From: Liolophura sinensis
Lineage: Eukaryota
Direction of reading: 5' to 3'
Assembly (NCBI RefSeq): GCF_032854445.1
Contig: NC_088295.1
Location: 28,692,498-28,756,497, forward strand
DNA: 64,000 nt
Under the pieces are notes generated by a model that was not told the DNA's origin, did no database searches, and worked only from the letters and a program-made list of their open reading frames with translations. Of the stretch, positions 11,641 through 64,000 are shown in pieces. The position numbers and the translations under genes were made by a program. Position 1 is the first letter of the stretch. Every line of letters begins with the position of its first letter.

Positions 11641-12140
11641 TAGGCCAATGAATGGGAACCACTGGATGGTTCACGAATGCAGGCCGTTGGAAGATTCATG
11701 ACAGTACGGCGTTGGGATGTGCACGAGAGCTGGCCGTTGGGAGGTTCATGAAGGTATCCGTTGGGCTGTTCATGAAAGGGGCGGCCCCAAGGTTCATGAA
11801 AGGGGTGGTTGAAATGATCAACAAAGTGGCCGTTGGAAGGTTCATGAAAGTGGGTCGTTGGGAGGTTCATGAAAGTGGGTCGTTGGGAGGTTCATGGAAG
11901 TGGGTCGTTGGGAGGTTCATGAAAGTGGGTCGTTGGGAGGTTCATGAAAGTGGGTCGTTGGGAGGTTCATGAAAGAAGACCGTTGCATGTTCATGAATGC
12001 AGGCTGTTGGGTGGTTCATGAAAGTGAGCCTTTGGGATGTTTATGAAAACAGGCCGCTGGGAGGTTAATAAAAACAGGCCATTGGGTGGTTCATGAAAGT
12101 TGGCCGTTGGGAGAATCATGAAAGTTGGCTGTTGGGGTGG
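11640..12140. repeat. 25-bp minisatellite, about 19 copies (GAAAGTGGGTCGTTGGGAGGTTCAT and variants)
   Basis: periodic GGTTCATGAAAG; ORF 11652..11972 (VGRFMK repeats) is an artefact. Confidence 0.85.
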
Positions 12141-12529: not shown

Positions 12530-13075
12530 GGATATTCTGGACATTTCGCCCACATTCAATAGCTTGTATTTCTCCTGAACATTTCGCCCACAGTCAATAG
12601 CTTGTATTTCTTCTGGACATTTCGCCCACAGTCAATAGCTTGTATTTCTTCTGGACATTTCGCCCACAGTCAATAGCTTGTATTTCTTCTGGACATTTCG
12701 CCCACATTCAATAGCTTGTATTTCTTCTGGACAATGCGCCCACATTCATTTGCTTGTATTTCTTACGGATAATGTGCCCACATCCATTTGCTTGTATTTC
12801 TTATGGACAATGTGCCCACATCCATTTGCTTGTATTTCTTCTGGACAATGCGCCCACATTCATTTGCTTGTATTTCTTATGGACAATGTGCCCACATCCA
12901 TTTGCTTGTATTTCTTCTGGACAATGCGCCCACATCCATTTGCTTGTATTTCTTATGGACAATGTGCCCATATCCATTTGCTTGTATTTCTTCTGGACAA
13001 TGCGCCCACATTCATTTGCTTGTATTTCTTATGGACAATGTGCCCACATCCATTTGCTTGTATTTCTTCTAAACG
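12530..13075. repeat. 38-bp minisatellite, about 14 copies (ACATTTCGCCCACAGTCAATAGCTTGTATTTCTTCTGG; later variant ACAATGCGCCCACATTCATTTGCTTGTATTTCTTATGG)
   Basis: two subfamilies of units; ORFs 12678..13131 are artefacts. Confidence 0.85.
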
Positions 13076-13136: not shown

Positions 13137-13405
13137 GGCCTCCGTGGCTCAGTTGGTTAGCGCGCTGGCGCAGCGTAATGACCCAGGAGCCTCTCACCAA
13201 TGCGGTCGCTGTGAGTTCAAGTCCAGCTCATGCTGGCATCCTCTCCGGTCGTACGTGGGTCGGTCCGGCAGCAGCCAGCGGATGGTCTTAGGTCTCCCCC
13301 GTGCTCTGTCCTGTTTCCTCCCTCCATAATGCTGGCCGCCGTCGTATAAGTGAAATATTCTTGAGTGCAGCGTAAAACATCACTCAAATAAATAAATAAA
13401 TCTTC
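13137..13405 (+). mobile_element. SINE family A, full copy (tRNA-like head GGCCTCCGTGGCTCAGTTGGTTAGCGCG.., conserved core ..CCATAATGCTGGCCGCC.., tail ATAAGTGAAATATTCTTGAG..(AAATA)n)
   Basis: A/B-box-like head and TAAA-rich tail; more than 15 copies or fragments in window, both orientations. Confidence 0.7.
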
Positions 13406-15705: not shown

Positions 15706-16067
15706 ACACACGAACATGTACATCACAAGTTTATCATTAATTGGATATCTATAATGGATACATCAAAAACATGTCATAAACTGGATATCTATAATGGTTA
15801 CATCAAAAACATGTCATAAACTGGATGTCTGTAATGGATATATCCAAAACGTGTGATAAACTGGATATCTATAAAGGATACATCAAAAACATTTCATAAA
15901 CTGGATATCTATAATGGATACATCAAAACATGTCAAACAACTGGATATCTATAATGGATACACCAAGAACATGTCATAAACTGGATATCTTTAATGGATA
16001 CATAAAAAACATGTCATAAACAACTGGATATCTATAATGGATACATCAAAAACATGTCGTACACACA
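15706..16067. repeat. 40-bp minisatellite, about 9 copies (CATCAAAAACATGTCATAAACTGGATATCTATAATGGATA)
   Basis: direct reading. Confidence 0.85.
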
Positions 16068-16194
16068 GACATATCACAGATTCAATTGGCTAGCAACCTT
16101 GCTGGCAAAACAAATATATACCAAACTAACATACTTGTACTTACATGTACATGGATATACTTTATTTCTTATTATACCAAACATAACATAGGGG

Positions 16195-16345
16195 CCTCCA
16201 GATGTATGTGGAAAGGTGTACCAGCAACCCAATAGTCGTGTGTTTCCCCTGCACTCTTCCTGGTTTTCTCCCACCATAATGCTGGCCGCCGATGCATAAG
16301 TGAAATATTCTTGAATACAGTGTAAAACACCACACAAATAAATAA
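16195..16345 (-). mobile_element. SINE family A, 3' part
   Basis: core and tail consensus, reverse orientation. Confidence 0.5.
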
Positions 16346-16766: not shown

Positions 16767-17086
16767 TTACATAATAAATCCCAACATCTGTGCTGCTGCT
16801 TCTTCCCAGTTACTCCCCAGTTCCAACTGAGAATAAAGTAAAACGTGATCTTTATCCACCTTCAACACAAACTTCCCTGCCAGCAAGATGGAATCTGTAA
16901 ACTTTTGACACTTTGGATGTCCTTTCAAGGCAGCTGAGAGTTTCTTCAATATGGCAGCCAAAGACAGCTCCTCCAGGAATTGGGATCTTGTCACTGGAAA
17001 TGTTGTGGAGGTCAACAGATCCAGCAGCACTAGCAGAGCCATCATGGTCGCCAATACACACATGACCTTCTCACCAACCATTTTAC
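16767..17086 (-). CDS. PARP4: PARP4-like terminal exon (GKMVGEKVMCVLATMMALLVLLDLLTSTTFPVTRSQFLEELSLAAILKKLSAALKGHPKCQKFTDSILLAGKFVLKVDKDHVLLYSQLELGSNWEEAAAQMLGFIM*)
   Basis: acceptor ttaattcacag|GT joins leftover G of previous exon in frame; matches human MVP-interaction region GVKGRECLLDLIATMLVLQF...RLELGNDWDSATKQLLG; stop at 16767-16769. Confidence 0.6.
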
Positions 17087-17159
17087 CTGTGAATTAAAAC
17101 AAACCACTGTTACAATTAACAGTGAAAATACTGGATAAGGTATTTTCATATTAATCTCG

Positions 17160-17400
17160 TTTGTTATTTATTTATTTATTTGATTGGTGTATAATGCGGT
17201 TCTCAAGAATATTTTACTGGGAAGAAACAGAGCAGAACCCAGGGGAAACCCACGATCATCCCCAGGTTGCTGGCAGACCTTCCCAAATACGGCCGGAAAG
17301 GAAGCCAGTGAGAGCTGGACTTAAACTCACAGCTACTGTAATGGTGAAAGGCACCTGGGTCATTGCACCATGCTGGCATGCTAACCACCTCTAACCATGA
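17160..17400 (-). mobile_element. SINE family A copy
   Basis: tail, core and tRNA-like head in reverse orientation. Confidence 0.6.
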
Positions 17401-17439
17401 GATCAAATCATCAAAACAATATTTATGGTTCCTTGTAAC

Positions 17440-17570
17440 TAGCATTTTACTGATTTATTTATTTATTTCACTGGTGTTTTACACTGTATTCATGAATATA
17501 TCACTCATGTGATGGCAGGCGGCATTATGGTGGAAGGAAACCGGGTGGAGCAGTATTCAGGTTGGAGCTG
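17440..17570 (-). mobile_element. SINE family A, truncated
   Basis: tail plus core. Confidence 0.45.
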
Positions 17571-19007
17571 GAAAAGCTTAAAGTGAACATAAAGTCAAGC
17601 ACTAAAGCTAAATTAATTCATAACATAGTGTTCCACAAATGTTCAAAAAATATTTACAAAATTCTACACTGGTTATCAACAAAATAAATAGCAAACAATA
17701 GTCAGTACCTAGCCACACATTTGTTGACACCATTTTGCCATGTTATAGTTATCCAGAGTGACAAAACCTAGGAGCTCTCCCGTACCATCCATATGAAACA
17801 ATGTGACAAAGAGAAAACACAAACAAAAACGCCTGATACCCAACCAAAGAGTATCGACTCTGTTCTGTGTTCAAGGGGCCCATGTTTCTTTTGGTTTTGC
17901 ACTCTGTCAGGGCGATGTTTGTGGACACAAGAGTCATGTTTCAGCGATTTTGCTTGTCCTCCTCCTGCATGGGTGTAAGCATTTGGCCTAGCTGATTGTA
18001 CCGACAGGGAATTACTGAACATAGCAGGACCTTCTGACTGATAACAGACCCTTTCATTCAGATTTTGGGAAGATATTTTCGTAATAAATCAGACTTTGCT
18101 AAGGATAAACAATGCAAAGTCATAATATTTTTCTTCAAACAATGACTCTCCCAAGGCAGTTTTCTTGCCAGCTCACCCTGACAAGTTAATGCAGTATGCT
18201 GCCAAACATGGGCATAAATGTGTGGTTCAAAATCCATCAGTTTAACGCTTAGACTAACTCCAAAATCCAATTTATTGCAATGACATCTGCCTATCCACTA
18301 GAAAAACCATACTGACAATCGAGATCTAATAGGTTTTTTGACGCGACCCTCAATTATCACATGACTCTTTCAGCGCTAGTTATTGGCCAAGTTCATAAGG
18401 GTTTCTACAAATGGCTATTCGGTGTGAATTGTACGTCAGTACCATATCCCCAATGTTGAACTCCATCTTCTCGACTTTCACAACTTAACAGAATTTTTTT
18501 ACATATTTTTCTGTAATAACTGTGACCTACATCATTTTTTCTATGTATTTATTGTGACAAACTTTATGTTCACTTTAAAGGCTTTCAGGGATATGGAAAC
18601 AAAGGAGGGCAGCTAACTCCACTCTATTATTAAAGGCAGATGGGTTTTGGTCTTTGCATTAGGGACATATGATGAATGAGGTGGTTGGCTTGCTTTGTCT
18701 GTATAACTGGTATTTCCTGAGATGAAATACATATTAAAGTGAAGCGTCCAAACATGTAAAACTTGTAATTGTAGTTTACATTTATATTTTTATATGGCTT
18801 ATTAATTTTCCATCTAAAAATGTTCAAAGAGTACATTATACTGTACATGCATGTATATACTAATGTGTTCTTACAAATGCTGCTACATGCATATCTACAC
18901 AGGTTAATCTGAAAAACTCATCTAAAAGGAAACATGGAAAACAATACAGAATCACTTTTTACCTCAAAGAACAATACAACTAATATAATGCAGAAACATT
19001 TCCATAC

Positions 19008-19107
19008 CCAGAGACTTCAATCCTGCTTCATTTAACAAGCTGACACACAAATCCTTGTCCACAGCAATCAGATCATTCACTTCTTCACTGAACTCCCAAT
19101 GTCCAGA
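19008..19107 (-). CDS. PARP4: PARP4-like C-terminal exon (SGHWEFSEEVNDLIAVDKDLCVSLLNEAGLKSL)
   Basis: acceptor ctcttctcctctcag, donor TGG|GTATGG; matches human DGFWKLTPELGLILNLNTNGLHSFLKQKGIQSL. Confidence 0.6.
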
Positions 19108-19892: not shown

Positions 19893-20550
19893 CTCTATCC
19901 TTTTCATATCTGTCTTGTATCCTCTACTGACAGATATCAACAACATGAAGACAGGGGTGAGACAACCACTGACTGGATGAAAGCTGGATCTGTCTTGTAT
20001 CCTCTACTGACAGATATCAACAACATCAAGACAGGGGTGAGACAACCACTGACTGGATGAAAGCTGGATCTGTCTTGTATCCTCTACTGACAGATATCAA
20101 CAACACCAAGACAGGGGTGAGACAACCACTGACTGGATGAAAGCTGGATCTGTCTTGTATCCTCTACTGACAGATATCAACAACACCAAGACAGAAGTGA
20201 GACAACCACTGACTGGATGAAAGCTGGATCTGTCTTGTATCCTCTACTGACAGATATCAACAACACAAGGACAGAAGTGAGACAACCACTGACTGGATGA
20301 AAGCTGGATCTGTCTTGTATCCTCTACTGACAGATATCAACAACATGAAGACAGGGGTGAGACAACCACTGACTGGATGAAAGCTGGATCTGTCTTGTAT
20401 CCTCTACTGACAGATATCAACAACATCAAGACAGGGGTGAGACAACCACTGACTGGATGAAAGCTGGATCTGTCTTGTATCCTCTACTGACAGATATCAA
20501 CAACACCAAGACAGGGGTGAGACAACCACTGACTGGATGAAAGCTGGTTT
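19893..20550. repeat. 90-bp tandem repeat, about 7.3 copies (TCTGTCTTGTATCCTCTACTGACAGATATCAACAACATGAAGACAGGGGTGAGACAACCACTGACTGGATGAAAGCTGGA), in a PARP4-like intron
   Basis: near-identical units differing mainly at the CATGAAG/CATCAAG/CACCAAG position. Confidence 0.85.
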
Positions 20551-20983: not shown

Positions 20984-21105
20984 CTTTTTCTGGGCAGCAA
21001 AGAGTTTCTCTAAATTATGTTGAGACAAAGTTGGTGTTCCACATCTCACAATGAATCGTTTCTGACTCAAAATCTTTGTCTGACCACAATTTTCTGGAGG
21101 CCACG
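20984..21105 (-). CDS. PARP4: PARP4-like exon (AWPPENCGQTKILSQKRFIVRCGTPTLSQHNLEKLFAAQKK)
   Basis: acceptor cgtggtag, donor AAG|GTAAAA; phase consistent. Confidence 0.5.
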
Positions 21106-22049
21106 CTACCACGAATAAATAAAAAAAATAAATGTTGGTAATTGCAATATAAAGTGGGCCGTGGCCTGGGTCATTCAATCCCTAGGACACATATGGTGGG
21201 GATTCAAATCTGGCCTTAGAAATTTGTAGAATACCATGCTCTCACTTGTATGATTATTTGTCTAAGATACATTGAGGACCCTTGTCTTTAGTACATGTAC
21301 ATTGCAAATGGGAAAATTCATGAGTAACTTGAAAAGGGTTGGTGGTTTTCACTGGACACTTTGGTAGCCTCCACCTGTTAAGTTAACAATCATCATATAC
21401 TAGTAAATGCAAACTTCTCAGGCAGGGCACCAAACAAGAATAAAATAAATAAATGTAATATGGACCTGAAGAAGTGAAGGTGTAATAAACTTAGATACCC
21501 TGTTTAGGCTGCAAAAGGGTTAAATGTTAAATCACAGTCTGTGTTTAATTTTCAATGCCTTCAAAGGTTTACAATACATGTATGTAAAAGTTTGGCGTTT
21601 GCAATAAACTTTATATGGACTCTAGATTGATACTGTTCTTCTGTAAGGTCAGGACATTTACAAATTAGCAATGTGTAAAGTAGCATGTACAACTGCCTAA
21701 CACAGAGCTAGATACATGTAGCTTTCTGGTGGATAAGAGTTGAAAGTAAAAATATCTCCCCATTCAGGGATCAACAAAGTCATCGCAAAGGCCAAAGATA
21801 ATAATATGGCCACAGGATGTTAAACTTTCATCACAAAATTTAACCAGTACTTTAATAAACAGTACCAGCAAATTAGACAACTGTTCATAAAAAGTTAATC
21901 ATGAACTATCATACAAAGCACCATATCCATTTTGAGTCTCTGTTAAGATGACACAGGGAGTAAGATGTGCTGTTTTTTTCTTCAAAGTTTCCAGAAAAGG
22001 GGTAGTACAGACATACAAACATCTACTTGAATGCTCTTACCTGTATTAC

Positions 22050-22256
22050 CCGACATGTCAATCAGGTCCCCTATATCATCTAGAACTGACAACAGGTGCG
22101 AGGTTTCCTTTATTGACCACTGGTGACAGACAAACTCCCGCAGAGACTGCAGCTGATGGCCTTCCATGTTCAAGTTTTGTTTTGCCTGGAGAAGTCTTTT
22201 GGTCTGTTCCATTCTCTCAGCAAGGGATGTCAGGTCATGTTTTACGCCATGAAAAC
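22050..22256 (-). CDS. PARP4: PARP4-like exon (FHGVKHDLTSLAERMEQTKRLLQAKQNLNMEGHQLQSLREFVCHQWSIKETSHLLSVLDDIGDLIDMS); alternative donor 9 nt downstream at 22041
   Basis: acceptor ttgttacag; donors TCGG|GTAATA or ACAG|GTAAGA both keep phase. Confidence 0.5.
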
Positions 22257-22587
22257 CTGTAACAATCCGATACTACACATTTTTAATATATGTACATAAT
22301 ATAAAGAATTAGTGTAACCATCATTTATTAAAGTACATATATTTGTAACAGAATTACAATCTTGAAATTTGATGATAAAAAACATTAAGAATAAAAATTA
22401 AAGTATAATGCTAGTACCTTCCTTAACCCTTCAAAAAACAAGGAAATATTTAAAGGGGAAATCATGAAAGAAAACAAAACAAAAAGAGCGAAAACACATG
22501 GGATATATGTTGTACTGTTTGTATGCAGATATACTCTTAGGAGCTGTATCTACAACATAGAATGATTTTGACTTTCAAAAACCCTAC

Positions 22588-24673
22588 CTGTAGAGAGTGA
22601 AGCACCTGACAACATGGCCTCAAAGGCATGGAGGTATTCCACCAGTTTGACATAATCCCACTGTTCCTGTATCACATTCTCAAGGCCTCTTCTATTTGTC
22701 TGTTCACTGGTTTCCACCACAGACTCAAATATACCACTTCTTTTAGTGGTCCTTGATTGACAGCTCTTCAGAGTTTTCCCCAATGATCTAGCTCGTAGTG
22801 TGTTGGATTTCCAAGTATTTGCATGATTTTGTCTGTAGCGACCATCAACCTCTTTTGGCAATTTTAACTTTGAGGGATGCAGTATAGGTCTGGTTCGTGA
22901 ACCATGGCTTAGAAATGGGACATGATGTGACAAACTTTTCTGTGGCACACTGTTGGGATGTGCAATATTGCTCCCAAAGCCTTGACCAAAAGTTTGTCCA
23001 GAATGAGTGTTGTTATTGTTATTATGTAGTTTGCCTCTGCCATTAAAAGTAAAATCTGTCAGAGTAGTGAACTGAGCTCTTCCAGCAGCCCTACCTACAT
23101 CAAAATTTTTAGTTGAAACATTTCCAAAACCAAATGATTGTGCAGGAGCACTGCCAAAACCAGATGTTTGTGCAGGAGCACTGCCAAAACCAGATGTTTG
23201 TGCAGGAGCACGGCCAAAACTAAATGGTTGTGCAGGAGCACTACCAGAACCAGGTGTTTGTGCAGAAGCACTTCCAAAACCAGATGTTTGTGCAGGAGCA
23301 CGGCCAAAACTAAATGATTGTGCAGGAACACTGCCAAAACCAGATGTTTGTGCAGTAGCACTGCCAAAACTAAATGGTTGTGCAGGAACACTGCTAAAAC
23401 CAAATGTCTGAGAAGAACTGCCAAAACCAGATGTTTGTACAGGGGCACTGCCAGAACCTGATGTTTGTGCAGGAGCACTACCAGAACCAGATGTTTGTGC
23501 AGGAGCACTACCAGAACCAGATGTTTGCGCAACAGCACTGCCAAAGCCAGATGTTTGCACAGGAGCACAGCCAGAACCAGATGTTTGTGCAGGAGCACTG
23601 CCTAAACTGGTTGTCTCAGTCAAACTGTTGGAAATCTGAGCATGATCATTAGCAAATTTGCCCATCTTTGCAGGACTGCTTGCACTTGAAACAGGGGTCC
23701 TATCAGAACTGGTTGCACTACTGCCAAAAGAAAAAGGCTTGCCAGAAGAAGCATTAGAACTGATATGAATAGTACTAAGACTATCAATACCACCAGATAA
23801 AGCATTAACAGAACTCATAGACTTAGCAGGAGTACTAGAGGATCTGGCAGTTGTACAGGGAGCACTATCAACGCCAGAAGGCTTGGCCAAAGAACTACTG
23901 AAATGCACAGATGGACAGGAAGTCTTTTCAAAATTTAAAGGCTTAGTCCCAGTGGTAGAGCTGGTAATGAAAGTGGGACTGCTCCCACAGCTAGTCGTTG
24001 TAGAGGGAGTAATATCAACACTAGAAGTCTCAGAAGCAGAACTGGTCTGTGCTAACTTGTTTCCAAACAGGCTTTGAGAACTTCGTATGGTGTTAGATTG
24101 TGTTACATTGTTGCCAAACAGGCTATGAGAGGGCTGTATGGTGTTAGGCTGTGTTACTTGGTTGCCAAACAGGCTTTGAGAGGGCTGTAGGGTGTTAGAT
24201 TGTGAGAGGCTTTGAGAGGGTGGTATGGTGTTGTGCTGTGTTGCTATTTTACCAAACAAACTTTGAGAAGGCTGTGCTTGTACATTGAGTTGTGCTGCTT
24301 TGCTGCCAAACAAACTTTGTGAAGGCTGTACATTGTTAAGCTGTGTTAATTTGTTCTCACACAAAGTTTTATGCAAATATCCACTCTTGGAAAAGAAATC
24401 TGAGTTAGTTCCACAGAGCCCTCTGGAAAACTGAGATGTGCTACCCTCAGATAAACTCTGATTTACAGGATATGTTGGTTTGCAAGTCAACACATCTTGG
24501 GAAGGCTTCTTTTGTTGCAAATGCTTGCTTAAATATCTAGCATTTGATGGTGTAAAATTGTGCATTTTCTTCTGCGAATATCTGTGCTGACTATCAGATA
24601 ACTGTGACTGTTCCTCTGAAGATTCACAATGGTTTTGTGAAGAAGTATCTAAGTCAGATGACTGATCTTCTAT
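22588..24673 (-). CDS. PARP4: PARP4-like large low-complexity exon (about 695 codons). It has SQSLFG-type and SGSAPAQTSGFG-type tandem peptide repeats rich in Ser/Thr/Gln. It is an internal exon that ends at an ACAG|GTAGGG donor, not at the ORF stop.
   Basis: acceptor tgtttatttcag|ATAGAAGAT. Open frame of 2086 nt. Leftover-1 phase joins the next exon in frame. The underlying 36-bp DNA repeat is at 23100-23620. Confidence 0.65.
23100..23620 (-). repeat. Coding minisatellite inside the PARP4-like large exon. The unit is ~36 bp (CCAGATGTTTGTGCAGGAGCACTGCCAAAA on the plus strand) and encodes SGSAPAQTSGFG-type repeats, about 14 copies.
   Basis: periodic 36-bp unit; an open frame is maintained on both strands, and the antisense ORF 23095..23598 is an artefact. 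Confidence 0.7.
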
Positions 24674-24976
24674 CTGAAATAAACACAAAGCAAAAGCACA
24701 TTCTTACACTTGCACATTAACATATTTCTGCAAACAAATGTTCTAACAAACTCATAAGTAATCTTAAGAATGAAAAGTTTGATTTAACTGACAATATCCA
24801 TGTAGCATCAATATTATCTGATTGTCTATGCATCAATCAACAAGAGTTGAATCTATTCTTGTAGCATGTCTATAGAAACATTGAATAAGCCTTTACTTCA
24901 ATTTACGATCCATCCCTCTGCATAAAAGTAAAAATCGCTGGAAACCTTAATTACCCAATGAATTAACAGTACCAAC

Positions 24977-25099
24977 CTCATCAGTGGCTGCATCACCACT
25001 CCTGTTTTCCTCCACTGCAACAAAGCTGGTAAGTGGACACAGGACGTTAAACTCTTTACTCAGCTGTACTATTCTCTCTGTCTTGGAAAACTTCAACAT
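24977..25099 (-). CDS. PARP4: PARP4-like exon (MLKFSKTERIVQLSKEFNVLCPLTSFVAVEENRSGDAATDE)
   Basis: 123 nt; acceptor ttgcttgcag, donor GAG|GTTGGT; TSFVAVEEN matches human TSFVAVEKRDENE. Confidence 0.6.
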
Positions 25100-25739
25100 C
25101 TGCAAGCAAAATGTGTGAGTTCATGTAACTATAATCCTTTATCTACTTCTCATCTTCCTAACGCTTTCTGTTCTGTCACAACATATGTTGCACCTTATGG
25201 ATAAGTTTTCAACAAAGAATATCACACTTTAATGTTTGCAGCACTGCCATGGGAACTTTGTACATAACTTACATATATTTCCATCAAATATTCCAGTGAG
25301 TTTCAAACATGTACAAAATCTTGTTTATCATCTGAGTCACCAGAGTACTTCAGCAACAATGTTTTAGCAAACTGGATTATGGAGATATAAAACTCCTTTT
25401 GAAAAATACCCTTAGGACTGCTGGACAATTAGGAGATCAGCTCACCTCATGAAGTGTATGATCTGTGTGCAGTATACCATACTGCCAATCCCTGATCAAG
25501 GCATGCGCAGTCAGGCTGTGGAGAATCTGTGGATATACAAAAAGCAGGAGAAACAGCCATATGAGTCACCTACTGTAAACTTCTCCTATATCAGTGATGT
25601 TGATAAACTTTACCACATATCACATTACTGCATTCTTTAACAATGCAGTCCCACATGACACATCCAGACACTTTACATGCACTGTAGCGAAATGAAGCGA
25701 CATACTTAACAATATATAAGTTTGTGTCACTCATGCCAT

Positions 25740-26035
25740 TTGGCTGTAATAAACACTTCTTTATTTATTTGATTAGTATATCACGCTGTGTTCAAGAATA
25801 TTTCACTTACACGAAAGAGGCCAGCATTATGGCCGGAGGAAACCGAGAAGAGCCTGAGGGAAACTGACGACCATCTGCGGGTTGCTAGAAGACCTTCCCA
25901 CCTACAGCCAGTGAGGAAGCCAACCTGAGCTGGACTTAAACTTACAGCAACTGCATTGGTCAGAGGCTCCTGGGTCATTGTGCCGTTCTGGCGTGGTAAC
26001 CACCTCGGCCACAGGGGCCCGCCATAATAAATAAA
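25740..26035 (-). mobile_element. SINE family A, full copy
   Basis: tail ttatttatttgattagt..., core gccagcattatggccggagg, tRNA-like head at 25950-26030. Confidence 0.7.
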
Positions 26036-27329: not shown

Positions 27330-29005
27330 TTACCAACATCTTGGAGAACAGCAGGACTTTGTTCAGGGAAGACAGTGTCACTTACCACAGTACAGTTCTG
27401 AACAAAGCCATACACGACATCTGGACCCAGGGTAAAGGTTTTGGAGAACAGCGGGACTTTGTTCAGGGAAGGCAGTGTCACTTACCACAGTACAGTTCTG
27501 AACAAAGCCATACACGACACATCTGGAGCCCAGGTACAGGTTTTGGAGAACAGCAGGACATCGTTCAGGGAAGGCAGTGTCACTTACCACAGTACAGTTC
27601 TGAACAAAGCCATACACGACACATCTGGATCCAGAGTAAAGGTTCTGGAAAACAGCGGGAATTTGGGAAGGGAGTGTCACTTACCACAGTACAGTTCTGA
27701 ACAAAGCCATACACGACACATCTGGATCCAGAGTAAAGGTTCTGAAGAACAGCGGGACTTTGTTCAGGGAAGGCAGTGTCACTTACCACAGTACAGTTCT
27801 GAACAAAGCCATACACGACACATCTGGATCCAGAGTAAAGGTTCTGAAGAACAGCGGGACTTTGTTCAGGGAAGGCAGTGTCACTTACCACAGTACAGTT
27901 CTGAACAAAGCCATATACGACCCATTTGGATCCAGAGTAAAGGCTTTGGAGAACAGCAGGACATCGTTCAGGGAAGGCAGTGTCACTTACCACAGTACAG
28001 TTCTGAACAAAGCCATACACGACACATCTTGACCCAGAGTAAAGGTTCTGGAGAACAGCGGGACTTTGTTCAGGGAAGAGAGTCTCACTTACCACAGTAC
28101 AGTTCTGAACAAAGCCATACACGACACATCTGGACCCGGGGTAAAGGTTCTGGAAAACAGCGGGAATTTGGGAAGGGAGTGTCACTTACCACAGTACAGT
28201 TCTGAACAAAGCCATACACGACACATCTGGACCTGGGGTAAAGGTTTTGGTGAACAGCGGGACTTTGTTCAGGGAAGGCAGTGTCACTTACCACAGTAAG
28301 AGTTCTGAACAAAGCCATACACGACACATCTGGATCCAGAGTAATGGTTCTGGAGAACAGCGGGACTTTGTTCAGGGAAGGCAGTGTCACTTACCACAGT
28401 ACAGTTCTGAACAAAGCCATACACGACACATCTGGACAGGAATAAAGGTTCTGGAGAACAGCGGGACTTTGTGCAGGGAAGGCAGTGTCACTTACCACAG
28501 TACAGTTCTGAACAAAGCCATACACGACACATCTGGACCCAGAGTAAAGGTTCTGGAGAACAGCGGGACTTTGTTCAGGGAAGAGAGTCTCACTTACCAC
28601 AGTACAGTTCTGAACAAAGCCATACACGACACATCTGGAGCCAGGGTACAGGTTTTGGTGAACAGCAGGGCATCGTTCAGGGAAGGGAGTGTCACTTACC
28701 ACAGTACAGTTCTGAACAAAGTCATACACGACACATCTGGATCCAGAGTAAAGGATCTGGAGAACAGCGGGACTTTGTGCAGGGAAGGCAGTGTCACTTA
28801 CCACAGTACAGTTTTGAACAAAGCCATACACGACACATCTGGATCCAGAGTAATGGTTCTGGAGAACAGCGGGACATCATTCAGGGAAGGGAGTGTCACT
28901 TACCACAGTACAGTTCTGAACAAAGTCATACACGACACATCTGGACCCAGGGTAAAGGTTTTGGTGAACAGCGGGACTTTGTTCAGGGAAGGCAGTGTCA
29001 CTTAC
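27330..29005 (-). repeat. Tandem array, about 16.4 copies of a 102-bp unit. The unit is the last 84 nt of the PARP4-like exon 29006-29176 plus the first 18 nt of the intron, including the GTAAGT donor. Each unit is 34 codons and keeps an open frame.
   Basis: unit (minus strand) CCTGAACAAAGTCCCGCTGTTCTCCAGAACCTTTACTCTGGATCCAGATGTGTCGTGTATGGCTTTGTTCAGAACTGTACTGTG|GTAAGTGACACTGCCTTC; the first copy is continuous with unique exon sequence. Confidence 0.8.
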
Positions 29006-29176
29006 CACAGTACAGTTTTGAATAAAGCCATACACGACACATCTGGATCCAGAGTAAAGGTTCTGGAGAACAGCGGGACTTTGTTCAGGGAAGGGAAGGT
29101 CAGGCTCAAACTGCTGCCATGTCATGGTTAGATTAGTGACACATGGGTTTGAAGCCTTCTTCAGCAACTCTGATAT
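29006..29176 (-). CDS. PARP4: PARP4-like exon (ISELLKKASNPCVTNLTMTWQQFEPDLPFPEQSPAVLQNLYSGSRCVVYGFIQNCTV) followed by GTAAGT donor; its 3' 84 nt plus 18 nt of intron is the unit of the downstream 102-bp tandem array
   Basis: 171 nt phase 0; acceptor ttgtttcaccag; matches human QIEDQMTRLCSPSCHSVSVKWQQLNPDVPEALQAPAQVPSLFLNDRLLVYGFIPHCT. Confidence 0.65.
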
Positions 29177-36704: not shown

Positions 36705-36965
36705 CGCCTCCGTGGCCTAGGTGGCTAGTAAGCCAGCACAGTGCAATGACCCAGAAGCCTCTCACCAATGCAGTTGCTGTGAGTTCAAGTCGAGCTCATA
36801 CTGGCTTTCTCTCCAGCCATACGCAGAAAGGTCTGCAGCAACCTGCAGATGGCCATGGGTTTCCCTCGCGCTCTGCCCGGTTTCTTCAAACCCTAATGCT
36901 GGCTGCCGTCATATAAATGAAATATTCTTGAGTACGCGGTTAAACACCAATCAAATAAATAAATA
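36705..36965 (+). mobile_element. SINE family A, full copy
   Basis: ggcgcctccgtggcctaggtggctagtaagccagc... head, tail (aaata)n; ORFs 36467..36966 are artefacts. Confidence 0.7.
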
Positions 36966-37393
36966 AAACAAATCTTTACAAAAGGAAAGTTTGACTGTAA
37001 ATTAAGTCTTACATGAGACATAAACTGCACACCATACCAAGCAAAACTAGTGTTATCTTGGAGAGAGAGTCGTAAGACAAAGACTGATTACATTGTTAAT
37101 TTTGCAACTGTACAAAATCTATATCAAATCTGCTTCAGATCTTTTGCCTATGTCCATCATGTAAATATATATTGTCTTTGAAGAGGTTTTTCTTTTCAGT
37201 GATCTACATGTTCAAATATTCTGAAAAAAAATGATTCTTTCCAAAAATGTATTTTTTACTTTTAATGTAATAACTGCTTGGAAAAAAGTGATTTGGTACA
37301 TGTGGATATACTTTACGACACACCCACCCCCCACCCCCACCCGCCAAAACAGGTAGATAAATGGCCTCACAATGCTTGGCAACTCAATCGTAC

Positions 37394-44574: not shown

Positions 44575-44990
44575 AACATGTTCAACATACACACGCACTG
44601 TCATGCACCATAATCCGTGACCTAAAGCACCATAATCTATGACCTCACGCACCACAATCCATGACCTCATGCACCACAATCCGTGACCTCATGCACCATA
44701 ATCCGTGATCTCATGCACCACAATCCCTGACCTCATGCACCACAATCCCTGACATCATGCACCGTTATCCTTCACCTCATGCACCATAATCCGCGACCTC
44801 ATGCACCACAATCCCTGACATCATGCACCGTTATCCTTCACCTTATGCACCACAATCCATGACCTCATGCACCATAATCTGTGACCTCATGCACCACAAT
44901 CCCTGACCTCATGCACCACAATCCCTGACATCATGCACCGTTATCCTTCACCTCATGCACCATAATCCCTGACCTCATGCTCTGTTGCCT
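44575..44990. repeat. 22-bp minisatellite, about 19 copies (GCACCACAATCCCTGACCTCAT) with a 66-bp higher-order variant (..GCACCGTTATCCTTCACCTCAT), in PARP4-like intron 2
   Basis: direct reading. Confidence 0.85.
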
Positions 44991-51624: not shown

Positions 51625-51855
51625 CGACAAAATGACCCAGTAGTCTTTCACCAATGTGGTTACTGTAAGCTCAAGTCTAGCTCATGCTGGCTTCCTCTCC
51701 GGCTGTATGTGGGTATATCTCTCAACAGCCTGCAGATGGTTGTAGGTTTCCCCCGTGCTCTGCCTGGTTTCCTCCCACCATAATGCTGGCTTCCATCGTA
51801 TAGGTAAAATATTCTTGAATAAGGCGTAAAACACCAATCAAATAAATAAATAAAT
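51625..51855 (+). mobile_element. SINE family A copy (in ashwin intron 3)
   Basis: head, core and tail with (aaata)n. Confidence 0.6.
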
Positions 51856-52139
51856 CTCTCTCTTTTTTTAAAAAAAAAAAACAGGGATATATAAATATTA
51901 ATAAATGATGCATACAAATATATTTGTAACTATGTGTATCCAGAACTTCAACTTAAGGTTATAATAGAGCAATAGTATTTTTTTTTCTTTTATAGCAGTT
52001 CTTGGATATGTAATTGAATAGTTTCTGATTTTTAATTGTCATGTTTTAGCTTGTTGATTTGTCTGCTTGTGAGCTGTGGAAGTATCGAACACTATCCAAA
52101 TTTTAATTCTTTTTGTGTTTTCTCTTTGTAATGTTGCAG

Positions 52140-56039: not shown

Positions 56040-56270
56040 GTGGCCAGCACACTGAAATGACCCAGCGAGCAATGCGGTCACTGTGAGTTTGAGGGCAGCT
56101 CATGCTGGCTTCCTCTCCGGCCTTATGTGGGAAGGTCTACCGGCAATCTGCAGATGATCCTGGGTTTCCCCAGGCTGGTCTTGGTTTCCTCCCACCACAA
56201 TGCTGGTTGTTGTCGTATAAGTGAAATATTCTTGAATATGGCATAAAATATCAGTCAAATAAATAAATAC
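56040..56270 (+). mobile_element. SINE family A copy
   Basis: head, core and tail. Confidence 0.6.
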
Positions 56271-56379
56271 ATCAGGGAAACGGGACGCTGAGTATGGCCT
56301 TGGAGTAGTCTCTATGTCACCTGCTATGCTAATACAAAAAGACACCACTTTGTATTGTAGATATGACAACCAGTGTAAA

Positions 56380-56900
56380 TGGACCTTTATCCAAGAGATC
56401 TCTGAAACCTGGAGTTGTAAGGAAACCCAGGGGAGAGGCAAGAAAACTTAGAGGAATCACCAAACCTGGTGGTGAGGACATGTGAAGACATAGGGAAACC
56501 TGGAGAGATGTGGGCAAACCTGGAGAGGTGTGAGGAAACCTGAAAGTGTAAGCAAACCCTGAGAAATGTAAGCAATTCTGGTTGTAAGAAAACCCAGGGG
56601 AGATGCAAACAGACCTGGAGGTGAGGAAACCTACAGAAGCATCAGCAAACCCTGATGTGAGGAAATGTGGAGGCTTAAGGAAACCTGGAGCGATGCAAGC
56701 AACCCTGGTTAGGTGTAAGGAGACATGGAGGCATAAATAAACAAAGGGAGCTGCCTGCAAACTTGGAGAAGTGTGAGAAAAAGCGGTGCTGGGGGGTAAA
56801 CCAGGAGGTGTAAGAAACCTGGAGTTTGAGGAAACGTGGAGGCATGTACGGAAACCTGGAGAAGTCTGATGAAACTAGTTGAGGATAGAAACCATGCTGG
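56380..56900. repeat. degenerate minisatellite of GGAAACCTGGAG-like units (~18-30 bp periodicity)
   Basis: recurring gaggaaacctg / caaaccctg motifs; minus-strand ORFs 56329..56917 are artefacts. Confidence 0.55.
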
Positions 56901-57308: not shown

Positions 57309-59208
57309 TTAGTCTACCTCCTCTACAGTGGGGCCTTGTCCTGAAGTACCACTGGTGTTCCCTGATTGTGAGTTGCCATGTAACTTTGACATGATTGGGG
57401 AGCAAACATCCTGCACCTCCTTCAGCTTGTGATCTAATTCATCCTTCTCAGCCAGTGAATTACTGTCCATCCACCTGAGTGCTTCGTCACATGTGGTCAC
57501 CACAGTGTTTTTGTCATTCTCTGGCAGTTTGCTGCCCTGCTCACTGACTACCTGTTTAATACTGAAGATGTAGCCCTCCAGTTTATTTTTGGCTGCCACA
57601 CGTTCTCTATGCTGAGCATCATCATCTTTGTATTTCTCTGCCTCAGCCAACATTCTCTCAATGTCAGCTTTACTCAGTCTACCCTTGTCATTTGTGATGG
57701 TGATTTTGCTGTTTTTCCCTGTGCTTTTATCCTCTGCTGATACATTCAGGATTCCATTTGCGTCAATGTCAAATGTCACCTCGATCTGGGGCACACCTCT
57801 TGGTGCAGGTGGGATGCCATTCAGTTCAAATGTGCCCAGTTTGTTGTTGTCCTTGGTCATCGCTCTCTCCCCCTCATACACCTGGATTGTAACACCTGGC
57901 TGGTTATCAGCATACGTGGTGAAGGTTTTGGAGGTTTTCATTGGGATTCTTGTATTCCTGTCAATCAAGTTGGTCATCACACCTCCAGCTGTCTCAATTC
58001 CCAAAGAGAGGGGAGCCACATCCACCAGTAGGACATCCTTAATCACCTCGCTCTGCTCTCCAGTCAAGATGGCAGCCTGAACTGCAGCACCATAGGCCAC
58101 AGCCTCGTCAGGGTTGATCGACTTGTTCAGTTCTTTCCCATTCATAAAGTCGTGTAATAGTTTCTGGATTTTAGGAATTCTGGTAGAGCCTCCGACTAAG
58201 ACAATTTCATGGATCTTGGACTTGTCCATCTTAGCATCTCTCAAGGCCTTCTCCACAGGTTCCAGGGTCCCCCTGAAGAGATCTGAACACAAGTCCTCAA
58301 ACCTTGCCCGTGTGACTTTGGTGTAGAAGTCAATGCCCTCAAACAGAGCATCGATCTCAATGTTGGCATCAGAACTGCTGGACAGCGTTCTCTTGGCTCG
58401 CTCACAGGCTGTGCGGAGGCGACGAATGGCACGTTTATTTCCACTGATATCTTTGTGGTGTTTTCTCTTGAACTCTTGAACGAAATGGTTGACGAGTCTG
58501 TTATCAAAATCTTCTCCACCCAGGTGAGTGTCTCCTGCAGTGGAGCGAACTTCAAACATGGATCCTTCATCTATTGTGAGGATAGACACATCAAATGTGC
58601 CACCTCCCAAGTCAAAGATGAGCACATTTTTCTCACCTTTAAGGTTTTTGTCCAGTCCGTAAGCCAGAGCAGCAGCTGTAGGCTCATTGATAATCCTGAG
58701 AACATTTAGGCCGGCAATTGCTCCAGCATCTTTGGTGGCCTGTCTCTGTGAGTCATTGAAGTAGGCAGGAACCGTTATCACTGCATCCTTGACTTTCTGC
58801 CCCAGGTAAGCTTCAGCTGTCTCCTTCATTTTGGTGAGAACCATGGAACTGATTTCCTCAGGTGCAAATGTCTTTTCTTCTCCCTTGTACTCGACCTGGC
58901 TTGCCGTTATGGTTCACCACAGTGAAAGGCCAGTGTTTTTTGTCAGCCTGTACCAATGGATCGTTGAAATCTCGGCCAATTAACCGCTTGGCGTCAAACA
59001 CAGTGTTTTTGGGGTTGAGAGCCACCTGGTTTTTGGCCGCATCGCCAATCAGTCTCTCACTGTCTGTGAATGCCACATAGCTGGGTGTTGTTCGGTTTCC
59101 CTGTTCATTGGCGATGATTTCGACTTTCCCATGCTGGAACACTCCAACACAGGAATATGTCGTTCCCAGATCTATGCCAATCGCTGTAGATTTTGTACCT
59201 GCTGGCAT
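57309..59208 (-). CDS. HSP70: HSP70 (cytosolic Hsp70, C-terminal EEVD), intronless, copy 1. The frame is interrupted by an apparent 1-bp insertion near 58895 (CCAGGTC), so it is a possible pseudogene or a sequence error.
   Basis: N-terminal [49 protein letters not shown]... runs in one frame to NHNGKPG. It then shifts +1 into [32 protein letters not shown]...GPTVEEVD (ORFs 58858..59250 and 57309..58844). TATA and HSE lie upstream. Confidence 0.85.
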
Positions 59209-59367
59209 CTTCTCTGTCGTTGTGTTAACCTTACAGTTGTTGTTGCACACAGTAGAAAAATCGCTGCAGTCGGCGAATAATAGTATTGAACTACGGTGGT
59301 TCGTCTCTCTTCAGATATGTCTCTGATCGTTTGTGTCTCTTATTCTGACCCGCTACTTCGCCGTGAG

Positions 59368-60759: not shown

Positions 60760-61065
60760 TGGTTTATTTATTTATGTATTTATTTGATTGGTGTTTTACA
60801 CCATACTGAAGAATATTTCACTTGTATGACGGCGGCCAGCATTATGGTATGGCGAAACCAGACAGAGCCCGGAGGGAAACCTACGATCATCTGCAGGTTG
60901 CTGCAGACCCCCATCCCACTTACAGCTGGAGAGGAAGTAAACAAGGGCCGAAGAGGAAGTAAACAAGGGCTGGATTTGAACTCACAGCAAGTGCATTGGT
61001 GGGAGACCCCTGGGTCATGGCGCTGCACTGGCGTGCTAAACCCATCAACCAAAAGGCCCTTGAAT
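60760..61065 (-). mobile_element. SINE family A, full copy (between the two HSP70 genes)
   Basis: tail (ttta)n, core gccagcattatggtatgg, tRNA-like head; ORFs 60780..61134 are artefacts. Confidence 0.7.
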
Positions 61066-61189
61066 GTCACGTGGTGTCTGTATGTGTGTTGCTCATGTGA
61101 TACCTCTGCCAATTGTTTTCCTATAGAGAGGTGACATATTTGACATTTTTACCACTGTAAATACAAATAACAAATGTACCTCTAAATAC

Positions 61190-63036: not shown

Positions 63037-64000
63037 TTAGTCTACCTCCTCTACAGTGGGGCCTTGTCCTGAAGTACCACTGCTGTCCCCTGATTGTGAG
63101 TTGCCATGTAACTTTGACATGATTGGGGAGCAAACATCCTGCACCTCCTTCAGCTTGTGATCTAATTCATCCTTCTCAGCCAGTGAATTACTGTCCATCC
63201 ACCTGAGTGCTTCGTCACATGTGGTCACCACAGTGTTTTTGTCATTCTCTGGCAGTTTGCTGCCCTGCTCATTGACCACCTGTTTAATACTGAAGATGTA
63301 GCCCTCCAGTTTATTTCTGGCTGCCACACGTTCTCTATGCTGAGCATCATCATCTTTGTATTTCTCTGCCTCAGCCAACATTCTCTCAATGTCAGCTTTA
63401 CTCAGTCTACCCTTGTCATTTGTGATGGTGATTTTGCTGTTTTTCCCTGTGCTCTTATCCTCTGCTGATACATTCAGGATTCCATTTGCGTCAATGTCAA
63501 ATGTCACCTCGATCTGGGGCACACCTCTTGGTGCAGGTGGGATGCCATTCAGTTCAAATGTGCCCAGTTTGTTGTTGTCCTTGGTCATCGCTCTCTCCCC
63601 CTCATACACCTGGATTGTAACACCTGGCTGGTTATCAGCATACGTGGTGAAGGTTTTGGAGGTTTTCATTGGGATTCTTGTATTCCTGTCAATCAAGTTG
63701 GTCATCACACCTCCAGCTGTCTCAATTCCCAAAGAGAGGGGAGCCACATCCACCAGTAGGACATCCTTAATCACCTCGCTCTGCTCTCCAGTCAAGATGG
63801 CAGCCTGAACTGCAGCACCATAGGCCACAGCCTCGTCAGGGTTGATCGACTTGTTCAGTTCTTTCCCATTCATAAAGTCGTGTAATAGTTTCTGGATTTT
63901 AGGAATTCTGGTAGAGCCTCCGACTAAGACAATTTCATGGATCTTGGACTTGTCCATCTTAGCATCTCTCAAGGCCTTCTCCACAGGTTCCAGGGTCCCC
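63037..64000 (-). CDS. HSP70: HSP70 copy 2, 3' (C-terminal) part; continues beyond window end
   Basis: 315-aa ORF to GPTVEEVD stop; almost identical to copy 1 (a few substitutions, e.g. AAKNK/AARNK, GNTSG/GDSSG); 3' flank also duplicated. Confidence 0.85.

Follow-up and report, generated by a model that had tools for sequence, protein, structure and literature searches.

PARP4 (vault PARP, of the clade 5 PARPs) is, to our knowledge, the only enzyme known to reside in vaults, and its long linker is usually dismissed as featureless. In nucleoporins, phenylalanine-glycine (FG) motifs fall into classes: GLFG and SLFG motifs as in the charge-depleted Nup98, and FxFG motifs as in Nup62 and Nsp1. 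Trophinin is built of tandem decapeptides. Human PARP4 is anchored to the inner vault wall through its MINT domain, and long disordered regions give its folded domains freedom to move in the lumen (PMC12280208). A working criterion for FG domains, at least 5 FG per 200 aa, is satisfied by up to 2,863 Swiss-Prot proteins, including keratins, filaggrin-2, trophinin and GLH-1 (PMC8311347), so that a high FG content is not by itself uncommon among non-pore proteins. Here we describe the large linker exon of a PARP4-like gene from the chiton Liolophura sinensis (Mollusca, Polyplacophora), which lies in a 64,000-nucleotide stretch of contig NC_088295.1 (referred to below as the window; all positions are counted within it). 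This exon, at 22588-24673 on the minus strand, carries two in-frame tandem arrays dense in FG, and most likely represents a rapidly evolving spacer, not a novel type of machine.

The linker exon and its tandem arrays

An original prediction, made without database searches, had described the interval 22588-24673 as a PARP4-like low-complexity exon with expanded peptide repeats. The interval indeed coincides exactly with one minus-strand exon bounded by canonical splice sites: the acceptor reads ...tttcag/ATAGAAGAT, with its AG at 24674-24675, and the donor reads ACAG/GTAGGG, with its GT at 22586-22587. The exon lies within the longest stop-free run of the window, 717 codons in length against a mean of 17. 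When the exon was searched exhaustively with HMMER against 1.84 billion representative proteins, all 695 residues matched at 100% identity XP_064611003.1, a "PARP4-like" protein of L. sinensis of 2150 aa, the coding exons of which, 31-odd in number, all map between 45854 and 16770. The features of the exon are as follows.

22588..24673, minus strand: PARP4-like large linker exon, 695 codons plus 1 nt (2086 nt), corresponding to aa 1204-1898(9) of XP_064611003.1
24032..24325, minus strand: SLFG array, 6 units of 51-54 bp (17-18 aa), one of them cut to 36 bp
23723..23734, minus strand: isolated FSFG, exon aa 314-317, outside both arrays, checked against the DNA
23123..23599, minus strand: decapeptide array, 16 units in codon register, from Tandem Repeats Finder (TRF) and the codon table
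22973..22993, minus strand: TFGQGFG, two FG motifs downstream of the arrays, checked against the DNA
22589..22963, minus strand: non-repetitive basic tail of the exon, aa 571-695, with 19 K+R versus 10 D+E, leading to a C-terminal helical region

An alternative donor, CTG/GTGGAA, was weighed on account of an apparent clash between the phase-1 donor at 22588 and the phase-0 acceptor at 19107. It was dropped because the annotated model has two more exons in between (22042-22254 and 20984-21106), into which the basic tail continues. Open reading frames on the plus strand and in other frames inside the 30-bp array were set aside as by-products of the repeat, and Rfam and tRNA scans of the whole window returned no match, overlapping the exon or elsewhere. 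The genome paper of the species used the name L. japonica at first publication, which was corrected afterwards; RNA-seq from five tissues of L. sinensis (PMC11068029) and resequencing data (PMC13334032) exist.

The decapeptide array had been predicted as about fourteen copies of a 12-residue repeat, a 36-bp minisatellite at 23100-23620. Its period is instead 30 bp (10 aa), and it contains 16 units. TRF reports a period of 30 with 16.2 copies and 83% matches at 23124-23607; in codon register, 14 units measure 30 bp, one 24 bp and one 33 bp. The consensus is AGT GCT CCT GCA CAA ACA TCT GGT TTT GGC, encoding SAPAQTSGFG. FG closes 11 of the 16 units, as SGFG, FSFG or FGFG, if the shortened 24-bp unit, which ends FGF, is counted among them; the other five end in SGSG and have lost the phenylalanine through a single TTT-to-TCT change. 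The array is composed of 23% S, 18% G, 16% A, 10% Q and 10% F, with 1.3% charged residues, and matches no Pfam family even at E<=10. Mean pairwise identity of the 30-bp units is 86%, and nine copies lie within 3 mismatches of the consensus.

The second array had likewise been miscounted, as about eight copies of roughly 15 residues: it consists of 6 units of 17-18 aa, 5 of which contain SLFG, with the consensus PSQSLFG(N/K)xxTQxNTIQ. The motifs named in the original prediction were nonetheless right, despite the wrong periods and copy numbers. The unit without SLFG is shortened to 12 aa (36 bp) and lacks any FG. TRF finds a period of 51 with 2.9 well-preserved copies at 24057-24204, and the 51-bp units share a mean pairwise identity of 69%. 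Serine makes up 20% of the array, glutamine 16% and asparagine 9% (Q+N 25%), and 4% of its residues are charged. It is this array that is recognized by the Pfam model Nucleoporin_FG (PF13634, cut-off 32.2), with 37.5 bits for the exon open reading frame, 35.5 bits for the full protein and 49.3 bits for the SLFG array alone. Neither the 30-bp nor the 51-bp unit sequence occurs elsewhere in the window. By eye, a core P-x-Q-x(1-3)-F-G is common to both unit types (PSQSLFG in exon aa 117-214; PAQSFSFG and PAQTSGFG in exon aa 359-517), and the decapeptide may be derived from a portion of the older 17-aa unit.

The exon as a whole contains 20 FG dipeptides, against 3.45 +/- 1.7 expected from 20,000 composition-preserving shuffles, among which the maximum was 11. 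They occur in the contexts SLFG (5), FSFG (4), FGFG (1) and GFG (8), and the densest 200-residue window of the exon holds 14. FSFG had been predicted as a dipeptide; it is a tetrapeptide, present four times as noted above, once in isolation and three times inside the decapeptide array.

The PARP4-like gene and the place of the linker in it

The PARP4-like identity proposed in the original prediction is borne out by the exons flanking the linker on the minus strand, which are collinear with human PARP4, and by the name of the annotated product. On this sequence evidence, we take the gene at this interval to be the PARP4-like (vault PARP) gene of L. sinensis. The domain order, BRCT, a putative HD, VIT, vWA, post-vWA and MINT, is the same as in human PARP4. 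The N-terminal exons (BRCT-HD) align to human PARP4 aa 5-407 (E 4.4e-18), and the concatenated VIT, vWA and following exons align to aa 637-751, 873-1006, 1043-1098 and 1148-1183 (E 4.2e-35). In the full XP_064611003.1, Pfam recognizes BRCT at 34.2 bits (cut-off 21.3), VIT at 102.5 bits and, following it, VWA_3 at 61.9 bits. PARP_reg, corresponding to the HD, scores 19.8 bits, below its cut-off of 26.8, but the region aligns to the human PARP4 HD-ART chain 8sx1 (E 3.9e-11). Against a word-indexed protein set that lacks XP_064611003.1, and whose negatives are thus uninformative for animal proteins, the VIT-vWA concatenate gave one weak metagenomic VIT/vWA match (E 7e-8), and neither the exon nor the N-terminal 1052 aa gave a relative. 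Three exons position the linker and the C-terminus.

24977..25099, minus strand: upstream exon (MLKFSKTERIVQLSKEFNVLCPLTSFVAVEENRSGDAATDE), aligning to human PARP4 aa 1148-1183; fixes the start of the linker
19006..19107, minus strand: first MINT-like exon (SGHWEFSEEVNDLIAVDKDLCVSLLNEAGLKSLG), aligned to human PARP4 from aa 1583
16770..17084, minus strand: last coding exon, with the remaining MINT-like domain, ending ...LELGSNWEEAAAQMLGFIM and then stop, aligned to human PARP4 up to aa 1706

Together, the last two exons align to human PARP4 aa 1583-1706, providing a C-terminal MINT domain. This match is weak database-wide, where a PDB search gave PARP4 as the top match at E 0.054, and significant pairwise (BLASTP, 40.8 bits, E 3e-10, 24% identity). 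With the upstream exon placed at human aa 1148-1183 on one side and the MINT-like exons at aa 1583-1706 on the other, the linker exon occupies the ancestral PARP4 linker position. A single-sequence AlphaFold2 model of the C-terminal 312 aa had a mean pLDDT of 39 and was not used for fold search; AlphaFold confidence was also not used as a test of disorder in the exon, since a helical domain scored low as well.

When the pairwise BLASTP alignment was mapped by us onto the residues given in PMC12280208, only one of the four human MINT residues reported to contact the major vault protein (MVP), S1614, was conserved. At the other three positions in this domain (16770-19107), the chiton protein has M for K1618, D for Q1682 and Q for R1689. 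On the MVP side, the residues binding PARP4 are reported to be conserved only in vertebrates (PMC12280208). For these two reasons, we treat vault association of the chiton protein as an assumption.

No Pfam PARP catalytic domain was matched at E<=0.01 in the full XP_064611003.1, and alignment to human PARP4 ends at aa 404/407, where the ADP-ribosyltransferase (ART) domain begins. No HG[ST], GxYF or YxE-type motif was found in any minus-strand open fragment between 37650 and 42120. The annotated exons in that interval (aa 351-613 of XP_064611003.1) match nothing. An ART core could be very divergent or divided among exons too small to be noticed. The locus may encode a pseudo-enzyme, or mis-modelling may affect the ART interval.

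An artefactual origin of the exon was considered in this light, namely that the arrays are spliced out or skipped, or that the locus is a decaying PARP4 paralogue not expressed as protein. The lack of a detectable ART domain in both the model and the genomic interval is what such a paralogue would show. A messy 102-bp tandem array elsewhere in the gene points the same way: it duplicates an exon end together with its donor 17 times, and the annotated model threads it awkwardly. However, in a window where runs average 17 codons, a 717-codon open frame is unexpected of untranslated or decaying DNA, and all insertions and deletions within the exonic arrays keep the frame, unlike those of the intronic array. 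The BRCT, putative HD, VIT, vWA and MINT exons are intact and in order, and canonical splice sites lie exactly at the ends of the linker exon. We consider an artefact of this kind quite improbable.

Origin of the arrays and constraint on them

The original prediction had attributed a nucleoporin-like FG character to the repeats. By composition and FG density this holds for both arrays, and for the SLFG array it is also supported by Pfam; the decapeptide array has no such match. No nucleoporin was found among the 62 non-self matches of the exon in the HMMER search. The ten identified by name, and those whose sequences were read, are proteins without relation to it that have repeats with a period of roughly ten residues. 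Apart from the self match (E = 0), the best, at E 3.7e-33, is a fish MICAL-like protein with decapeptide repeats, and the others include a Patella SNAT10 and a DotG-like protein; PDB matches of the exon to Legionella DotG/IcmE were discarded as a periodicity artefact. No structured pore-anchoring domain is present, as Pfam analysis of the full 2150 aa shows BRCT, PARP_reg, VIT, VWA and the FG region only. The likeness of the exon to FG nucleoporins, as judged from these comparisons, is one of kind, not of homology. Our literature search returned no relevant report joining PARP4 and "FG repeat".

These results bear on a possible origin by exon shuffling or fusion, in which a nucleoporin gene would have donated the FG segment, making it a homologue of a genuine nucleoporin FG domain. 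The above-threshold Nucleoporin_FG score would fit such a capture, as would the presence of SLFG and FxFG/GFG flavours side by side. The HMMER search of the library found no nucleoporin, however, the similarity is compositional or periodic, and the exon sits at the ancestral linker position. Nor is a transfer needed, because young tandem amplification of single units explains the FG density. We have rejected capture on these grounds and regard it as scarcely credible.

Amplification at the DNA level is evident from codon usage. In the 14 full decapeptide units, the same codon is shared at AGT in 11, GCT in 12, CCT in 11, GCA in 11, CAA in 14 and ACA in 11. These near-identical codons indicate that the peptide repeats arose by tandem amplification of DNA. 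Unit identity (about 86% versus about 69%) suggests that the decapeptide array is the younger of the two.

Comparison of the decapeptide unit pairs gave 95 synonymous and 255 non-synonymous codon differences, a synonymous fraction of 27%. Of the 90 single-base changes that the consensus unit allows, we counted 24 as synonymous, giving a neutral expectation of 26.7%. The units have therefore diverged about as would be expected without selection on the peptide, and this neutral-looking pattern of substitution makes it doubtful that the precise repeat peptide is under strong selection. The behaviour of the frame is different. All unit lengths in the two exonic arrays (30, 24 and 33 bp; 54, 51 and 36 bp) are multiples of three, while the 102-bp array in an intron of this gene departs from multiples of three in 5 of its 16 unit lengths (101, 103, 97, 97 and 100 bp) and contains stops. 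The reading frame of the exonic arrays is protected, unlike that of the intronic array.

We think it probable that the exon encodes a flexible tether with almost no charge, which grew through slippage of two coding minisatellites and is somewhat self-cohesive and weakly constrained, with arrays that in their present form are of chiton-lineage origin. The exon supplies most of an approximately 800-residue low-complexity, presumably disordered segment between the VIT-vWA body and the MINT-like domain. Within it, two in-frame minisatellites would have expanded, most likely by replication slippage or unequal exchange, the 51-bp unit to six copies at an older date and the 30-bp unit to sixteen more recently. 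Both arrays together add about 257 residues of nearly uncharged S/T/Q/N/A/P/G sequence with Phe-Gly. The segment may serve as a flexible tether or spacer, in which FG "stickers" could confer weak self-cohesion as in charge-depleted FG domains. The exact sequence of the units would be under little selection, while frame and translatability would be maintained.

Several observations weigh against this account or soften the evidence for it. The synonymous count is crude, being taken over non-independent pairs of a few short units, and the identity of the exon to XP_064611003.1 is not independent, as the RefSeq model was built on the same assembly. Within the decapeptide, the final Gly varies synonymously only (GGC/GGT/GGA) and Gln5 is invariant, and FG is carried by two unrelated unit types; these features may hint at selection for FG content itself. 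A mild enrichment of FG outside the arrays, 3 against 1.03 expected in 197 aa (P about 0.07), is a further such hint. Disorder was judged from composition, and by the Uversky charge-hydropathy measure both arrays fall on the "collapsed" side. Finally, we infer an origin of the arrays within the chiton lineage from the young look of their DNA.

Some of the same observations would support a selected, functional FG domain, forming a cohesive phase among PARP4-like molecules (in the vault lumen, if MINT docks on MVP) or binding transport receptors or the FG domains of the pore, which would connect the protein or the vault with nucleocytoplasmic transport. Such a domain would account for the SLFG array scoring above the curated Pfam Nucleoporin_FG cut-off and for FG appearing in four separate sequence contexts. 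The spacing of 10-18 aa, the charge of 1-4% and the N/Q/S/T-rich spacers resemble charge-depleted cohesive domains (Nup98, PMC9579204), and the synonymous-only changes at Gly10 and the protected frame would also be expected of it. Vaults are reported at the nuclear pore complex (PMC12547018), and the pore plug is discussed in PMC2288824. Set against this, unit divergence fits the neutral synonymous fraction, five of the 16 decapeptide units tolerate S in place of F, Pfam does not recognize the larger array as FG and no nucleoporin appears among the 63 library matches. The simple FG density is reached by 2,863 Swiss-Prot proteins (PMC8311347), and the MINT-like domain keeps only one of the four human MVP-contact residues (S1614). 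A selected FG domain is, in our view, unlikely. A more elaborate form of it, in which a catalytically dead, vault-associated PARP4 relative carries a cohesive FG domain on its MINT-like anchor, so that chiton vaults are lined or filled with a pore-like phase or dock on receptors or pore FG, seems highly improbable.

What the linker would mean depends on this choice. By published count (14 per 200 aa), it is among the more FG-dense sequences, in a protein apparently lacking the catalytic core. Should its FG content be under selection, vault PARPs may act beyond catalysis, in a scaffold-like or transport-related capacity, and if an FG phase in vaults were real, it would give a first molecular handle on the decades-old proposal of an interaction between vaults and the nuclear pore complex. 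If the FG content is not selected, which is likelier, then slippage of coding minisatellites can yield sequence scoring above threshold for a curated "nucleoporin FG" model, which calls for care in annotation based on domains. The feature is of modest interest unless its FG content proves to be selected.

Surrounding repeats and comparison with known systems

The locus is unusually rich in tandem arrays. The 102-bp array spans 27342-29094 on the minus strand in 17 copies, with donor copies at 29005, 28903 and onwards to 27385. Its unit joins the post-vWA exon's 3' end (PAVLQNLYSGSRCVVYGFIQNCTV, a homologue of about aa 1060-1098 in human PARP4) to the first ~29 nt of the intron, and each unit keeps the donor GTG/GTAAGT, accounting for 17 of the 18 occurrences of GGTAAGT on that strand. 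The array may offer 17 competing splice donors. The RefSeq model takes two small pieces of it into protein (aa 1053-1090), although its frame is broken by insertions, deletions and stops. Further minisatellites lie at 11668-12136, 12535-13070, 15734-16058, 19908-20547 and 44601-44980, with periods of 25, 38, 40, 80 and 22 bp, respectively, in 8-19 copies; the last two are intronic to the PARP4-like gene.

Downstream, the minus strand carries a tandem pair of intronless HSP70 copies, at 57309-59250 and 63037-64000. The first is split into open reading frames of 130 aa and 511 aa by an apparent frameshift near 58850, and the second runs off the end of the window; they show only a few residue differences over their shared C-terminal 315 aa. 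A dispersed repeat, presumably a SINE-like element, is present in both orientations in about ten or more copies in the 64 kb, for example at 13217-13387, 16074-16337, 17184-17324, 25724-25978, 36721-36966, 51660-51917, 56100-56441 and 60784-61134. Its translation reads ...QEYFTYTTAASIMVGGN...GE/NP..., and that of the opposite strand ...NDPGASHQCSCCEFKSSS...

The linker of human PARP4 (about aa 1184-1582, from VIT-vWA to MINT) is the closest counterpart of the chiton segment, as both occupy the same position in the same domain order. By alignment end-points, the chiton linker measures about 808 residues versus about 399 in human, approximately twofold longer. It carries the two tandem arrays and 20 FG motifs, and has no detectable similarity to the human linker. 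Indeed, the exon gave no alignment to full-length human PARP4 at E<=10, consistent with the prediction that the human protein is unlike the chiton one here. The non-repetitive parts of the exon were matched by the source protein only among the 1.84 billion representatives, a weak negative, since short divergent flanks would escape detection in a database of that size. Unlike human PARP4, the chiton protein has no recognizable ART core.

With FG nucleoporins, the linker shares FG motifs every 10-20 residues, spacers rich in S/T/N/Q/A/P and an almost complete lack of charge. It differs from them in that the rest of the protein is PARP4-like and has no pore anchor, and in that the larger array has no Pfam FG match. 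A similar likeness extends to the non-nucleoporin FG proteins, such as C. elegans GLH-1/2, human trophinin, keratins and filaggrin-2 (PMC8311347), which have at least 5 FG per 200 aa in S/T-rich low-complexity sequence. None of the non-nucleoporin FG proteins in that review is a PARP or a vault component, its text makes no mention of PARP, and the chiton units are unrelated to theirs in sequence. In the build of its arrays, the exon resembles coding minisatellites (in-frame variable-number tandem repeats, defined in populations by their length polymorphism), with 30- and 51-bp units arranged head to tail, shared codons and blocks of variant units. The feature combines two known kinds, a PARP4 linker and a non-nucleoporin FG-repeat region, and an FG-rich linker is unusual for PARP4.

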